Assembly: GCA_040756035.1 (NCBI GenBank)
Contig: JBFLZV010000004.1
Span: 7,463 to 71,462 of the forward strand
Length of the DNA stretch: 64,000 nt
Origin: Pseudomonadota bacterium
Lineage (GTDB): Bacteria > Pseudomonadota > Gammaproteobacteria > SURF-13
Reading direction: 5' to 3'
How positions within the stretch are numbered: the stretch's first letter is position 1; each line of letters opens with the position of its first letter. Shown here one piece after another: positions 1-59,106 of the stretch. The translations under genes and the position numbers were made by a program. A model generated the notes under the pieces. That model was not told where the DNA came from. It was given only the letters and a program-made list of their open reading frames with translations, and made no database searches.

Positions 1-1636
1 GCAGGGCGGCGTGCGCCTGCTGCGCGTGCGTGACGACGGCGGCGGCATTCACCGGGACGACCTGGCGCTGGCCTTGAGCCGCCACGCCACCAGCAAGATC
101 GCCTCGCTCGAGGACTTGGAGCGCGTGGCGACGCTCGGCTTTCGCGGCGAGGCGCTGCCCAGCATCAGTTCGGTGGCGCGCCTCACGCTGTGTTCGCGCA
201 CGGCGGACGCGCGCAGCGGTTGGCGCATGAGCGGCGACGGCGGGGAAATCTACGGCGCGCCCGAACCCGCCGCGCACCCGCCCGGCACCACCGTGGAAGT
301 GCGCGATCTGTTTTTCAATACTCCGGCGCGGCGCAAGTTCCTGCGCTCGGAAAAAACCGAATTCGGCCACCTGGAAGACGTAGTGAAGCGCATCGCGCTG
401 AGCCGCTTCGACACCGGCTTTCTGCTCCGCCACAACCAGCGCGTGGTGCACAGCCTGCGCCCCGCGCCGGATGACGCCGAGCGCGCGCAACGCGTCGCCG
501 CGGTGTGCGGCACGGCCTTTATCGAACAGGCGCTGCACGTCGATTTCGAGGCCACCGGCCTGCGTCTGTGGGGCTGGGTGGGGCTGCCGACATTTTCGCG
601 CAGCCAGACCGATCTGCAATTTTTTTACGTCAATGGGCGCATGGTGCGCGACAAGCTGGTCAGTCACGCCGTGCGCCAAGCCTATCAGGACGTGCTCTAC
701 CACGGGCGCCAGCCGGCATTCGTGTTGTACCTGGAGCTGCCGCCGGAACAAGTCGACGTCAACGCGCACCCCGCCAAGCACGAGGTGCGTTTCCGCGAAG
801 GGCGCTTGGCGCATGACTTTATTTTTCGCAGCCTGCATACCGCCTTGGCCGGCGCGGGACCGGGCGTCGCGCCGCGCGAGGTTGAAACCGTGACGACCGG
901 TGTTCCGGTTACAGGATTCGTGCAGCAATCCATGCCTTTGGCTGTTTCCGCCCCCCCACCGCTCGCATCGCAAGTGCGCGAACAAATAGCAGCCTACGCT
1001 ACGTTACACCCGCGCCCGGAACCGGACGCAGCAGTGCAAGCGCCGAGTGACGACGCGCCTCTGGGGTACGCCTTGGCGCAACTGCACGGCGTCTATATTT
1101 TGGCGCAAAACGCGCAGGGCCTGGTGTTGGTGGACATGCACGCCGCGCACGAGCGCATCACCTACGAGCGTCTCAAGGCCGACTTGGCGGGGCAGGGGCT
1201 GGCGGCGCAGCCGTTGTTGGTGCCGGTAACGATGGCGGTGAGCGCGCGCGAGGCCGGTCTCGCGGAGGAGCATCAGGCGCTGTTCGCGGAGCTCGGCTTC
1301 GAGCTCAGCCGCCTGGGGCCGGAGACGCTGGCGGTGCGCCGCGTGCCGGCCCTGCTCGGCGACCTCGACGCCGCCGCGCTGGTGCGCGACGTGCTGTCCG
1401 ATCTGCTCGCGCACGGCATGAGCGCGCGCATCCGCGAGCGCATGAACGAGCTGCTGGGCGCACTCGCCTGCCGCAGCGCGGTGCGCGCCAACCGCCGCCT
1501 CAGCGTGCCGGAAATGAACGCCCTGCTGCGTGACATGGAAGCCACCTCCCGTAGCGGCCAATGCAACCACGGCCGGCCCACGTGGGTGCAGTTTAGTATG
1601 AGCGATTTGGATAAGCTGTTTATGCGGGGACGGTAG
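1..1636 (+). CDS. mutL: DNA mismatch repair protein MutL (5' end lies outside the window)
   Basis: GHKL motifs [26 protein letters not shown]; C-terminal DMHAAHERI and CNHGRPT metal-binding motifs. The frame is open from base 2. Confidence 0.97.
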
Positions 1637-1695
1637 TAATGGTGAGGAGTAAAAATCTCATTACCCCTCACGCCTTACTCCTCACTCCTCACCCA
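1632..1695. repeat. Inverted period-7 repeat element between mutL and miaA
   Basis: Left arm ggtagta-atggtga-ggagtaa overlaps the mutL stop. Right arm ttacccc-tcacgcc-ttactcc-tcactcc-tcacc. gtgaggagtaa (1642-1652) is the exact reverse complement of ttactcctcac (1675-1685). Confidence 0.75.
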
Positions 1696-1699
1696 CTTT

Positions 1700-2635
1700 A
1701 TGCCTTCCGCCATTTTCCTAATGGGCCCCACCGCCGCCGGCAAGAGCGATCTGGCCGTACAGTTGGCCGAGCAATTTCCGTGCGAGATTATCAGCGTGGA
1801 CTCGGCCATGGTGTATCGCGGCATGGACATCGGCACCGCCAAGCCGCCGCGCGCGCTGCGCGAGCGCGTTCCGCACCACTTGATCGACATCCGCGACCCC
1901 GCCGAGCCGTACTCCGCGGCGCAGTTTCGCGACGACGCGCTGCGCCTCATGGCGGACATTCACGCGCGTGGGAAAATACCCCTCCTGGTGGGCGGCACCA
2001 TGCTGTATTTTCGCGCTTTGCAAGCGGGACTCACCGACCTGCCGTCCGCCGACCCCGTTTTGCGCGCTCGGCTGACCGAGGAGGCGCGCGCGCAGGGCTG
2101 GGCGGCCCTGCATGCACGCTTGGCGCGCGTCGATCCGGCGGCCGCGCGGCGCATTCACCCCCACGACGCCCAGCGTATTCAGCGCGCCTTGGAAATTTGG
2201 GAGCTGAGCGGCAGCCCGGCGACGGAACTTTACCGCCGTGCGACTGCCCAATCCTTGCCGTACATACTGCTTAAGCTGGTGCTGGCGCCCGCCGAGCGCG
2301 TAGTGCTGCACGAACGCATCGCCGCGCGTTTCCAGGCCATGCTGCGCCAGGGCCTGGTGGAGGAGGTCGAGGCGCTGCGCCGGCGCGGCGATCTGGACCT
2401 GCAAAAACCCGCTTTGCGCGCCGTGGGTTATCGCCAGGTGTGGCGCTGCCTGGAGGGTAAAATCAATTGCGAGGAGATGGCAAAAAGCGCTATTATAGCC
2501 ACACGCCAATTCGCCAAACGTCAGTTTACCTGGCTGCGCGCCGAGCAAGACGCCGTCTGGTTCGCTGCGCCGGGTAAAGACCTTTTCGAGTCAGTGTTGC
2601 GTTTTTGTACCGATGCGCTGTCAGCGCCTGAATAA
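1700..2635 (+). CDS. miaA: tRNA dimethylallyltransferase
   Basis: GPTAAGKS P-loop, [36 protein letters not shown]; mutL-miaA-hfq-hflX order. Confidence 0.97.
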
Positions 2636-2695
2636 CGGTGAGAGTTCTTACCCAGACGGTGCGCCTAAATGATAACGACAAAAAGGAGAACGGAA

Positions 2696-2947
2696 ATGAC
2701 CAAAGGGAAAACACTTCAAGACCCTTTTTTGAATACATTGCGTAGGGAAGGAATCCCGGTTTCGATTTATTTGGTAAACGGAATCAAATTGCAAGGTCAG
2801 ATTGAGTCATTCGATCAATTTGTAGTGCTGCTGAAAAACACCGTGAGCCAGATGGTGTACAAACACGCCATCTCGACGGTGGTGCCGGCGCGCAACATAA
2901 AACTTCCCAGCCAGGATGAAACGTCCACTGAGCCTGGAAACACTTAA
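2696..2947 (+). CDS. hfq: RNA chaperone Hfq
   Basis: [30 protein letters not shown] at 2696 preceded by GGAG. Confidence 0.98.
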
Positions 2948-56894: not shown

Positions 56895-57128
56895 ATGGGC
56901 AAACAAACGGCAGTAAGGCTCTCGGACGAAACATATGAGCGCCTGCATTCGCTCGCCGAACAAACGGGGCGCACGGTAACTTACTATATCCGCGAAGCCA
57001 TCGAAGAGCATCTGGAGGACTTGGAGGATATTTATCTGGCGGAGAAAGCGCTAGAGGACCTTCGGGCCGGTCGTGAGAAAACAATCTCCCTGGATGAAAT
57101 GAGTAAGCGCCTTGGCTTGGACGATTGA
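56895..57128 (+). CDS. RHH/CopG-type antitoxin
   Basis: VRLSDETYERLHSLAEQTGRTVTYYIREAIEEHLEDLED; overlaps the toxin start. Confidence 0.85.
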   Translation: MGKQTAVRLSDETYERLHSLAEQTGRTVTYYIREAIEEHLEDLEDIYLAEKALEDLRAGREKTISLDEMSKRLGLDD

Positions 57129-57378
57129 ATTCGATCCGCGCACTGAAAAGGATTTGAGAAGGATAGGCCGCCAAGAGGCCCGCCGTATTCGAGATTATTT
57201 GCAGAATCGCGTGGCCGTGCTCGACGACCCGCGCCAGCTTGGCAAACCTCTCAAGGGGCAATTCACGGAATTATGGCGCTACCGGGTCGGGGATTACCGT
57301 CTGATTTGCGAATTGCGCAACGCAGCACTGGTGGTATTGGTCATCCGTATCGGGCACAGGCGCGAGGTGTATCGTTGA
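57112..57378 (+). CDS. relE: RelE/ParE family toxin
   Basis: LGKPLKG, WRYRVGDYRLIC, VIRIGHRREVY; 88 aa. Confidence 0.9.
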   Translation: MAWTIEFDPRTEKDLRRIGRQEARRIRDYLQNRVAVLDDPRQLGKPLKGQFTELWRYRVGDYRLICELRNAALVVLVIRIGHRREVYR

Positions 57379-57486
57379 TTCCAATGACATCTCTCCCATA
57401 AATAGAGGCCGGTCGATCTTTATTTACCTCACACAGAAAAAATATTATAATATTTGGCTAACCTTTCTCTGCCATGGAGCCCTCCT

Positions 57487-58959
57487 ATGCGCCTAGCGCA
57501 GGACGCCCTGACCTTTGACGATGTGATGTTAGTGCCCGCGCACTCCACCGTCCTGCCTGCGCAAGTCAATCTGGAAACCTGGCTCACGCGCGACATCAAG
57601 CTCAGCATCCCGCTATTGTCCGCGGCCATGGACACCGTCACCGAGGCGCGTCTCGCCATCAGCCTGGCGCAAGAGGGCGGCATCGGCATCATTCACCGCA
57701 ACATGACGGCGGAAGAGCAAGCCGCGCAAGTGCGCAAGGTGAAAAAATTCGAGAGCGGTGTGATCAAAGATCCCATCACGGTCACGCCGCAGACCAGCAT
57801 CCGCGACGTGCTCGCCCTCACGCGCGCGCACAACATTTCCGGCGTGCCGGTGGTGGACGGCGAAGCGCTGGTAGGCATCGTCACGCACCGTGACCTGCGC
57901 TTCGAGACGCACTACGACAGCCCGGTGTCGAACATCATGACGCCCAAGGAACGCTTGGTGACGGTCAAGGAAGGCGCGGAGCGCGAGGAGGTGGTCGCGC
58001 TGTTGCACAAGTACCGCATCGAAAAAGTACTGGTGGTGAACGACAAGTTTCAACTGCGCGGCATGATCACCGTCAAGGACATTCAAAAGGCCAAGGAAAA
58101 TCCCAACGCCTGCAAGGACAGCCTGGGGCGGTTGCGCGTCGGCGCCGCGGTGGGCACCGGCGCGGGCGCCGACGAGCGCGTCGCGGCGCTGGTCGCGGCG
58201 GGCGTCGATGTGATCGTGGTGGATACCGCGCACGGCCATTCGCAAGGCGTGCTCGACCGCGTGCGCTGGGTTAAACATCACTTCCCCGCCATGCAAGTGG
58301 TCGGCGGCAACATCGCCACCGCCGCCGCCGCCGAGGCGCTGGTGAAAGCGGGCGCGGACGCCGTCAAGGTCGGCATCGGGCCGGGTTCCATCTGCACCAC
58401 GCGCATCATCTCCGGCGTCGGCGTGCCGCAAATCACCGCCATCGCCAATGTCGCCGCGGCGCTGGCGAAAAAAGGCATTCCACTGATCGCCGACGGCGGC
58501 ATACGCTACTCCGGCGATTTGGCCAAAGCCGTCGCGGCGGGCGCTTACGCCATCATGATCGGCAGCATGTTCGCCGGCACCGAGGAGGCCCCCGGCGAAA
58601 TCGAACTCTATCAAGGCCGTTCCTACAAATCCTATCGCGGCATGGGTTCGCTCGGCGCCATGACGCGCCTGCAAGGCGGCGGCGGAGCCGACCGCTATTT
58701 CCAGGAAAGCGTATCGGAAGCCGAAAAGCTCGTGCCGGAGGGCATCGAAGGGCGCGTGCCGTACAAAGGCCCTCTGCAAGCCATCGTGCACCAGCTCATG
58801 GGTGGCCTGCGCGCCAGCATGGGCTACACCGGTTGCAAGGATATCGACACCATGCGCGCGCAGCCCGAATTCGTGCGCGTCACCCTCGCCGGCATGCGCG
58901 AAAGCCACGTGCACGACGTCACCATCACCAAAGAAGCGCCGAATTATCAAATTGATTAA
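57487..58959 (+). CDS. guaB: IMP dehydrogenase
   Basis: [18 protein letters not shown] pair, [23 protein letters not shown]. Confidence 0.98.
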
Positions 58960-58965
58960 AATAAA

Positions 58966-59106
58966 AGTAGGGAAAAGGGAAAAGATACAAGTAACAGGGC
59001 AAAGGGAAAAGATACAAGGGAAAAGGGAGAAGACAAGGGAGATTCTTTCCTTTTCCCTTTTCCCTTTTCCCTTTTCCCTTTGCCCTTTGTCCTTTGTCCT
59101 TTGTTC
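58966..59106. repeat. Long inverted heptamer array between guaB and guaA
   Basis: agggaaa-agggaaa-agataca-agtaaca-gggcaaa... versus ttccctt x4, tgccctt, tgtcctt x2. Confidence 0.92.

Follow-up and report, generated by a model that had tools for sequence, protein, structure and literature searches.

Inverted arrays of heptamer and octamer repeats fill promoter-free spacers downstream of genes in an uncultured gammaproteobacterium

We analyzed 64,000 nucleotides of an uncultured gammaproteobacterium (Pseudomonadota bacterium, lineage SURF-13; GenBank assembly GCA_040756035.1, contig JBFLZV010000004.1, positions 7,463 to 71,462; hereafter the window), in which spacers between genes are filled by inverted repeat arrays: a purine-rich arm of tandem 7- or 8-nt units, a core, and a complementary pyrimidine-rich arm. 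The spacers they occupy are all promoter-free and follow at least one gene, which places the elements either between cistrons or where two genes converge; each element extends from the stop codon as far as the following start or stop. They are stable within the species and can persist at one junction through deep divergence, their units being rewritten to a genome-specific flavour; other junctions show gain and loss, and loci that are not orthologous can carry similar copies. With moderate confidence, we read them as palindromic simple-sequence-repeat elements that resemble repetitive extragenic palindromic (REP) sequences and REPINs, are of the kind described by Rehm et al. (2015), and are confined to promoter-free spacers. 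The host is found in freshwater, wastewater and biofilm metagenomes. Its flanking genes and nearest database relatives are gammaproteobacterial, and a search of genome contigs with Der returned no close relative (best, 62%).

An earlier note on this DNA, made from the letters alone, had described inverted heptamer arrays at six gene boundaries, and direct reading of the sequence recovers at all six a purine-rich period-7 arm, a core and a complementary pyrimidine-rich arm (H1 to H6, Table 1). Each arm holds three to eight units, which share a periodic AAG anchor followed by 4 nt (AAGTAAC, AAGTTGC, AAGATAC, AAGGGGA, AAGGGAA); the mutL–miaA site is built from GTGAGGA and AGTAATG units instead. 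Across the six sites, the unit sequence varies while the period and the polarity are kept, as the note had it, with the purine-rich arm first in 6 of 6. The same arm order holds in all five two-armed octamer elements (O1, O2 and O4 to O6, Table 1) and in the nested octamer arms of H2. This order reads alike whichever strand is taken, so the polarity truly belongs to the element itself. Runs of at least three anchors at period 7 occur five times for AAG and four times for CTT, compared with 0.16–0.17 per block-shuffled window, and a chance origin of these runs is excluded. The elements fold as long hairpins on both strands (z from −3.5 to −10.9), apart from the one-armed O3 (z −1.9/−0.3). None of 4227 Rfam models matched the window at its gathering score. 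The gene names in the earlier note hold for mutL, miaA, purA, hda, guaB and guaA, through NCBIfam; BamB and Der were named from Pfam domains and the source names of homologues, and Pfam places the minus-strand product of 14770–15384 in UPF0114, the YqhA family.

Table 1. Heptamer (H) and octamer (O) elements of the window, with predicted folding energies (dG) and z-scores; a slash separates paired values.
Element	Junction	Positions	Units and architecture	Folding
H1	mutL–miaA	1632–1694	Heptamer/14-mer inverted array; left arm AGTAATG GTGAGGA over the mutL stop, then (TTACNCC/TCACNCC)n; right arm longer, ending 5 nt before the miaA ATG (1700)	dG −19.1/−25.0; z −4.8/−4.1
H2	convergent purA / DUF3108 gene	9570–9695 (octamer arms 9573–9700)	Nested; inner heptamer arms at 9590–9668 (AAGTAAC AAGTTGC AAGTAAC AAGATAA, then CTTGGAA CTTGTCA CTTGTTA CTTG), wrapped by outer octamer arms AACGCAAAGACG / CGTCTTTGCGTT	dG −49.1; z −8.6
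H3	convergent hda / UPF0114 (YqhA-family) gene	14691–14784	Heptamer arms enclosing an unrelated 14-bp inner hairpin; hda TAA within an AGTAACA unit	dG −32.1; z −7.0
H4	bamB–der	52052–52175	AGATACA AGATAA (encoding DTR-stop), (AGGGGAA)2, (AGGGAAA)2, core, mirror pyrimidine arm, the latter longer and ending 3 nt before the der ATG (52179)	dG −53.1; z −8.6
H5	convergent der / mlaA	53563–53648	Fills the 82-nt spacer; both flanking stop codons (der, mlaA) in heptamer register	dG −36.2; z −9.1
H6	guaB–guaA	58966–59109	Longest array, arms of ~60 bp; mixed AGGGAAA / AGATACA / AGTAACA units; ends 4 nt before the guaA ATG (59114)	dG −70.1; z −9.3
O1	DUF2065 gene–hisZ	6916–7032	Octamer-armed (CTCACGCAAAGACGCCAAG ... 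CTTTGCGCCTTTGCGTGAG); AT-rich core of ~70 nt; flanked by an A-run and a T-run	
O2	ilvN–ilvC, both minus strand	20723–20796	Octamer array (ACGCAAAG x3 / mirror), 12 nt past the ilvN stop	dG −39.2/−50.1; z −8.2/−10.9
O3	ilvI–ilvN	21315–21343	Single purine arm (ACGCAAAG ACGCGAAG ACGCGAAG), without a mirror arm	z −1.9/−0.3
O4	convergent MIF/tautomerase-like gene / transaldolase-family (fsa) gene	23643–23776	8/9-mer element (CGCCAAGA CGCCAAGGG CGCCAAGAA ... CTTGGCGTCTTGGCGG)	
O5	ccmE–ccmF	46029–46160	Octamer-armed; perfect 24-nt arms, 84-nt core	dG −59.4; z −6.4
O6	ccmI–yfgM	50092–50222	Octamer-armed element	

A sister family with period 8 had gone unnoticed in six further spacers. Its ACGCAAAG and CGCCAAGA units make up O1 to O6 and recur in the outer arms of H2. 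Three of its members (O1, O5 and O6) have near-invariant termini of 24 nt, CTCACGCAAAG(G/A)CGC(A/C)AAGACGC, around unrelated, AT-rich cores of 70–100 nt. In the 64 kb of the window there are 5–6 octamer copies and 3 copies with AGTAACA/AGTTGCA units. The string GTCTTTG lies within the octamer pyrimidine arm (window 20726–20795, 46137–46160 and 7006–7032; also 2160–2178 of L216, a contig discussed below), and GTCTTTG/T is the consensus heptamer for binding of B. subtilis CspB (PMC1904285).

Among the 36 window spacers of at least 40 nt, elements of the two families occupy 12: 8 of the 19 co-directional spacers, 4 of the 8 convergent ones and none of the 9 divergent ones. Some lie inside gene strings that are usually operonic (guaB–guaA, ilvI–ilvN–ilvC, ccmE–ccmF, ccmI–yfgM–bamB–der). 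For placement statistics we used 92 arrays in 9 viral and 80 metagenome loci that match a CAAG pattern exactly (three CAAG anchors at period 7, a gap of 10–40 nt, three CTTG anchors), with genes called by our own codon-usage caller, which reproduced the window genes except for some start codons. Of these arrays, 58 were co-directional, 12 convergent and 1 divergent; 17 were ambiguous and 4 apparently lay within open reading frames (ORFs), three of the latter being start-codon over-extensions by the crude gene caller and the fourth the array of locus L146. The background spacers of the same loci are 71% co-directional, 14% convergent and 16% (15.6%) divergent, against which 1 divergent array in 71 is a marked deficit (p = 8e-5). 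Thus, the link to gene 3′ ends that the note drew holds both in the window and in the metagenome sample.

The first arm overlaps the stop codon at each of the four genes for which this had been reported (mutL TAG 1634–1636, hda TAA 14693–14695, bamB TAA 52064–52066, der TAA 53568–53570). At the two other sites, the guaB TAA ends 7 nt before the array, and the purA TGA 28 nt before the outer arm at 9573. The repeat register also encodes the C-terminal tails that had been read from it, ADTR-stop in BamB and SDKH-stop in the minus-strand gene at 14770–15384. In the sample, stop codons most often lie 0, 4, 7, 11 or 18 nt from the three-unit core, and the stop codon lies in heptamer register in 38 of 78 cases, above the 2/7 expected by chance (p = 1e-4), either as the free triplet before CAAG or as TAAG replacing CAAG. 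TAA and TAG are modestly enriched beside arrays (odds ratio 1.8–2.05, p about 0.02). On the downstream side, arrays commonly end 2–25 nt before the next start codon. We do not, however, follow the note in regarding the stop codon as a target: arrays reach the next start as well, and array-free spacers of relatives are only 15–16 nt long, so that any insert there necessarily adjoins the stop. Most of the stop association would follow from insertion or expansion in very short spacers, together with stop triplets that fit the unit.

Comparison with other contigs revealed both constancy and turnover. The bamB–der and der–mlaA arrays are base-for-base identical in six same-species contigs from six different sequencing runs; arrays are thus neither hypervariable nor assembly artefacts, and we rejected the latter explanation on this ground. 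In the orthologous spacers of related lineages (67–75% BamB identity), an inverted heptamer array is present between bamB and der in 7 of 7, with different units. The inner units of these relatives are AAGATAC/AAGAGAA, AGTAGCG/AGTGGCG or CTTGTAA; the bamB end keeps GATACAAGATAA or a close variant in four lineages, and the BamB C-terminus reads DTR-stop or DTK-stop in several. A guaB–guaA array occurs in two lineages, the window and the relative L088, and an ispG–hisS array also in one relative. The der–mlaA array is found only in the window, five relatives that were read having no array there, and one relative has a plain hairpin at the position of H5. The ccmE–ccmF spacer is 197 nt long in the window, with O5, versus 0–22 nt and element-free in three relatives. 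At ccmI–yfgM, the window has an octamer element, a 75% relative has a heptamer array, and three others have 15–16 nt. Finally, the inner array of H2 aligns at ~80% over 77 nt, loop included, with the ccmI–yfgM array of L265. Persistence at a junction, turnover at others and similar copies at non-orthologous loci together indicate that elements are partly passed on in place and partly copied or replaced.

In two relatives, contigs break off within a heptamer array (L087, 9280–9337; L089, 11092–11122). Among the same-species contigs, none has the complete guaB–guaA array: L081 ends within it (11869–11967), and the other five end upstream of it. Short-read assemblies break at the elements, and counts based on metagenome-assembled genomes therefore underestimate them.

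The same turnover could be the work of a non-autonomous mobile palindrome, similar to a miniature inverted-repeat transposable element (MITE) or a REPIN, with insertion directed to the stop codon or to the bases that immediately follow; the array would be the landing product, and the stop (TAAG or TAG) its target or first unit. This is a possibility that we consider unlikely. It would account for the excess of stops in register (38/78 vs. 2/7) and of TAA and TAG beside arrays, for presence and absence between relatives whose spacers are otherwise 15–16 nt, and for similar copies at non-orthologous loci; the conserved octamer termini and the one element pair that encloses an HNH endonuclease gene also fit. 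Yet stop adjacency is automatic in tiny ancestral spacers, about half of the stops are off register, and arrays come as near to the downstream start as to the stop. Copies differ in unit number and sequence, unlike typical MITEs; no target-site duplication is visible, and no associated transposase was found in the window or, by a rough probe, in the 2.9 Mb fetched.

The enclosed gene encodes a 194-aa HNH endonuclease (Pfam HNH_5, HNH, HNH_4) and lies in L216 (1449–2178), flanked by octamer-type arms, a purine arm of the CAAAGACC type and the mirror arm GGTCTTTG. This is the only array pair seen to enclose a gene: widely spaced purine-then-pyrimidine pairs number five, and of the three that were read the other two were without cargo. 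Four-helix-bundle genes, which the note had named as often flanked in this way, were absent from the 41 small flanking ORFs, whose translations, read by eye, looked like ordinary housekeeping or phage genes. Inverted termini are present, and nesting inside arms is seen in H2 and H3 as well as in the arrays of L112, L121 and L168.

The architecture is widespread in viral and metagenome contigs, and its polarity is nearly constant. The CAAG pattern matched at least 120 stretches of the JGI metagenome collection, in loci with 38–71% G+C. In the viral-contig collection, it matched 9 loci forward and 1 reversed, the latter merely the junction of two adjacent elements. An analogous 8-mer pattern gave 3 forward and 0 reversed, and a GGGA/TCCC pattern gave 37 forward and 2 reversed, so that 49 loci overall are purine-first versus 3 (p = 1e-11). 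The two polarities, whose equal use would have spoken against the earlier description, are therefore far from equal. The two GGGA/TCCC exceptions are members of a single CCCCAGT-type family, which has a higher-order repeat of 162 nt. The sole arrays of truly reversed polarity, (CCCCAGT/CCCCACT)3 followed by (GGGGAGT)3, sit in this tandem 162-nt unit in L262 (4600–5030 and 10650–10900) and L263 (1–170), contigs of 34–35% G+C.

The two arms of an array evolve together and share their flavour, with 66% agreement between the free triplets of one and the reverse complement of its partner, vs. 34% for the arms of other arrays. A mirror-order test of the units did not discriminate, the reversed unit order scoring the same because the arrays are short and alternating. 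We also rejected the idea that the polarity exists because the purine arm supplies stops in all frames, as CAAG-family stops occur in 25 of 405 purine-arm frames vs. 114 of 405 pyrimidine-arm frames, and swapped arms would not lengthen read-through.

Because of the purine-first polarity, the U-rich arm lies 3′ on both strands, so that any partial hairpin precedes a weak rU:dA hybrid. The arrays could then be register-tolerant, bidirectional transcription terminators or attenuators. We judge this rather improbable, even with the polarity (49 vs. 3 loci), the arrays in 4 of 8 convergent window spacers, and the lack of an excess of canonical terminator-like sites in the two scanned parts of the window in its favor. 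The plain hairpin of the relative at the H5 position, the A- and T-runs that flank O1, and the arms of L112, L121 and L168, which enclose a canonical hairpin that is GC-rich and has A and T tracts, point the same way. But a terminator scan flagged no heptamer array, only the ends of O1, and a U-tract (at least 5 T in 8 nt) follows the outermost pair in 0 of 29 arrays tested. Most arrays separate co-directional genes and leave too little space for a new promoter ahead of the second (guaB–guaA, ilvI–ilvN–ilvC and ccmE–ccmF in the window; atpD–atpC and iscU–iscA, named by eye from translations, also carry arrays in the sample), and L174 has a canonical terminator beside its array. The RNA structural device at 3′ ends that the note had offered as an alternative thus fails in its terminator form, given that no U-tract follows the full hairpin and that many arrays are inside operons. 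The arrays are not ordinary terminators, and partial termination effects may occur. In L095 (176–431), heptamer-armed hairpins stand head to tail with a period of ~98 nt, each followed by a T7 run; these look like stacked terminators.

An RNA device selected on the sense strand fares no better. In co-directional arrays, the arm mismatches comprise 106 G:T vs. 122 A:C (p = 0.32), with no sense-strand G·U bias, and arm complementarity is therefore strand-symmetric. Sense and antisense folding energies are mixed across the window elements. Near-absolute polarity and strand symmetry together argue against a simple terminator and against a G-quadruplex.

This symmetry also bears on a possible role in translation, in which the hairpin would join the upstream stop and the downstream start for termination-reinitiation, or the pyrimidine arm would be a 7-nt-periodic pad for cold-shock-domain proteins that melt the hairpin. 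We find such a device quite improbable. In co-directional arrays the stem base links the stop to a point 2–25 nt before the next ATG; no Shine-Dalgarno motif precedes der, guaA, miaA or hisS, four genes behind arrays, either in the window or in relatives; and the CspB consensus GTCTTTG/T (PMC1904285) is exactly the unit of the octamer pyrimidine arm. Against this, the sense-strand G·U signature is absent, a third of the arrays lie between convergent genes, and the GGGA-type pyrimidine arms (TCCCNNN) are unlike the CspB site. A Shine-Dalgarno motif, by a crude regular expression, precedes only ~38% of window genes, and in the sample it precedes 12 of 53 array-preceded genes vs. a 34% background; with so low a background, its absence behind arrays is not distinctive.

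G-quadruplex or i-motif formation, as proposed for the Xanthomonas and Nostoc arrays, is in our view very improbable here. Within the window, tracts of 3–4 G occur only in H4 and H6, with at least four tracts and A3-4 loops in each, and these, the 37 viral GGGA-type loci and the G-quadruplexes formed in vitro (PMC4692102) are what such a reading can draw on. H1, H2, H3 and H5, the CAAG family with its at least 120 metagenome stretches, and the octamer elements have no G-tracts and follow the same rules of position, pairing and polarity. A G-quadruplex thus fails as a general explanation, since G-poor arrays obey identical rules.

If the elements are REP-like palindromes of simple repeats, as we prefer to think, then their slippage-prone units of 7 or 8 nt would grow by replication slippage, and intrastrand template switching or copying would maintain the complementarity of the second arm. 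Elements would also be copied as a whole, by some route, from one spacer to another, and selection would purge those that fall in promoters or coding sequence. In a spacer of 10–20 nt, an array that inserts or expands would abut the stop codon, and TAA, TAG or TGA would fit the unit, leaving stops in register that were never targeted. Once transcribed, the element would fold, so that the upstream cistron ends in a hairpin of 30–60 bp. Judged from REP sequences, bacterial interspersed mosaic elements (BIMEs) and the RNase III sites of T7, this hairpin would most likely serve as a 3′ barrier or as a processing site, making the stability of one cistron independent of its neighbour's, rather than as a full terminator.

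Several points weigh against REP-like palindromes of this sort. The near-absolute purine-first polarity is not accounted for by the model, and the persistence of the bamB–der array in 7 of 7 lineages could instead mean a selected function there. NCBIfam and Pfam annotation shows no transposase, none of the REP-associated tyrosine transposases (RAYTs, of the Y1 HUH type) and no other trans-acting factor among the window genes, and a rough tblastn probe for RAYTs had no hits in 2.9 Mb of fetched sequence, a small part of the genome being covered. At O5, O6 and H5, no target-site duplication is visible in comparison with empty sites, the relatives being too diverged for exact junctions. No RNA-seq run with the locus was found, all covering runs being metagenome contigs, and the effect on mRNA is one that we only infer.

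A bolder version deserves slight credence: the elements may be RAYT-independent, REPIN-like, self-copying palindromes of simple repeats that are anchored on the stop signal (TAAG or TAG as first unit) and take their polarity from an enzyme or a replication intermediate. If true, they would constitute a novel type of mobile DNA in bacteria, one for which stop codons are landing marks and which remodels the spacers of operons in many phyla and in phages. The arrays yield four testable rules: they lie downstream of genes only, the purine arm comes first on both strands, the stop tends to be in register, and complementarity is strand-symmetric. With about a third of the window spacers filled, and many environmental and phage contigs carrying arrays, they make up a sizeable unexplained part of bacterial non-coding DNA. 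Practical effects also follow, as arrays break assemblies, supply the stop and last codons of several genes, and can mislead start-codon calling.

The window contains other repeats that differ from the arrays. A family of ~150 nt, with no Rfam match, occurs at 4385–4505, 15500–15870 and 35380–35470, with the strings CTCACCC..TGTCCCCTTT.CGCTA.GC.ATCC and CAACYTCGTTGCTTCACCCCT...GGGG.CGGG.ACGTAGC; its middle copy holds a 74-nt unit in three tandem repeats (15588–15814, 98% identical). Beside these repeats lies a second hairpin in two copies, 15440–15495 and 35475–35530 (ACTCAGGAGTCATAAAATAAGG... / ...CTTTATGA..CCTGAGTAA). Between xseA and guaB (56895–57378), a small gene for an RHH-domain protein (by a Pfam match on the L081 orthologue) and a second small ORF form a toxin-antitoxin-like pair, which is absent at the same junction of the relative L088. 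A phosphoribulokinase-family gene at 62326–63312 hints that the host may fix CO2 by the Calvin cycle.

Compared with known systems, the arrays share with bidirectional intrinsic terminators an A-rich 5′ flank and a U-rich 3′ flank on both strands and a presence between convergent genes. They differ in their stems of 30–60 bp, which are often AT-rich and lack a U-tract, in that most copies lie inside operons, and in not being a short GC-rich stem with a loop of 3–8 nt, in line with a scan that calls no heptamer array.

Cyanobacterial arrays of heptamer repeats have been on record since 1990, and the families STRR1 to STRR3 of heterocystous cyanobacteria have the units CCCCAGT, TTGGTCA and CAACAGT. 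The resemblance to STRR suggested in the earlier note holds for the kind of heptamer array (PMC4692102) and not for the unit sequences. STRR are the short tandemly repeated repetitive heptamers of Calothrix PCC 7601 (cited in PMC4692102). Like them, the window arrays have period 7 and are tandem, intergenic and present in many copies per genome; unlike them, they have other units in another phylum, STRR being described mainly as direct arrays. The STRR1-like (CCCCAGT) case of L262 and L263 has a polarity opposite to that of the window arrays and a higher-order period of 162 nt.

In Beggiatoaceae, cyanobacteria and Bacteroidetes, TAACTGA heptamers form direct arrays (169 direct sets, 1 inverted; MacGregor 2015, PMC4679880) that end just upstream of starts, usually without a Shine-Dalgarno motif, and in some cases overlap the upstream stop (PMC4679880). 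As related in the same paper, CspB binds heptamer direct repeats with one protein per heptamer (PMC4679880). The last pyrimidine-arm units here are often NAACTGA or TAACTTG, a one-base resemblance to TAACTGA. In contrast, our arrays are nearly all paired and their units variable, whereas TAACTGA arrays are almost all one-sided repeats of one fixed heptamer. The phage-like L099 has, besides paired arrays, one-sided direct heptamer arrays just upstream of start codons (GAGAACT, CGAAGAC; 460–700 and 1240–1340), an arrangement that resembles TAACTGA.

REP sequences and BIMEs lie mainly at gene 3′ ends, stabilise the upstream mRNA and can affect translation when close to the stop codon, and REPINs show long vertical persistence at a locus. 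A REPIN consists of two inverted REPs around a spacer and is thought to be mobilised by a RAYT (PMC3337134; Bertels & Rainey 2011, PMC3116915). Like REPs and REPINs, the window elements are extragenic palindromes in transcribed, promoter-free 3′ spacers, and they may form sequence populations within a genome. The octamer family alone adds the inverted, near-invariant 24-nt termini, variable cores of 70–100 nt and hairpin fold of a REPIN. Unlike in either, the arms are tandem 7- or 8-mers and not a single REP of 20–35 nt, and heptamer copies differ in unit number and order.

The closest precedent is already on record, in Xanthomonas and Nostoc, and the window elements are a variant of that kind. 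Rehm et al. (2015; PMC4692102) described (GGGAATC)n/(GGGANTN)n arrays in Xanthomonas, with 70–75 convergent pairs per genome capable of forming stem-loops, and (GGGGAYT)n arrays in Nostoc. Their G-rich strand lies 0–50 bp from the stop or overlaps it, and their C-rich strand lies before starts; they are depleted between divergent ORFs, occupy junctions that are conserved in related species with variable length and sequence, and have no link to insertion sequence elements (PMC4692102). No function was found for them, and a G-quadruplex was proposed, with its formation in vitro reported (PMC4692102). The window arrays are likewise tandem heptamers with fixed and free positions, in convergent pairs that are stop-adjacent and depleted between divergent genes, and the same junction is occupied in related genomes with varied sequence (bamB–der in seven lineages, guaB–guaA in two). 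Unlike those of Xanthomonas and Nostoc, most window units are G-poor (AGTAACA, AGTTGCA, AGATACA, GTGAGGA), so that a G-quadruplex cannot apply to them, and the window adds a period-8 family with conserved termini and long cores, nested arrays, and an uncultured gammaproteobacterial host. Several features go beyond the accounts cited here: the G-poor units, the octamer family, nesting, the frequency of stops in register, a polarity that is nearly absolute across collections, and strand symmetry.

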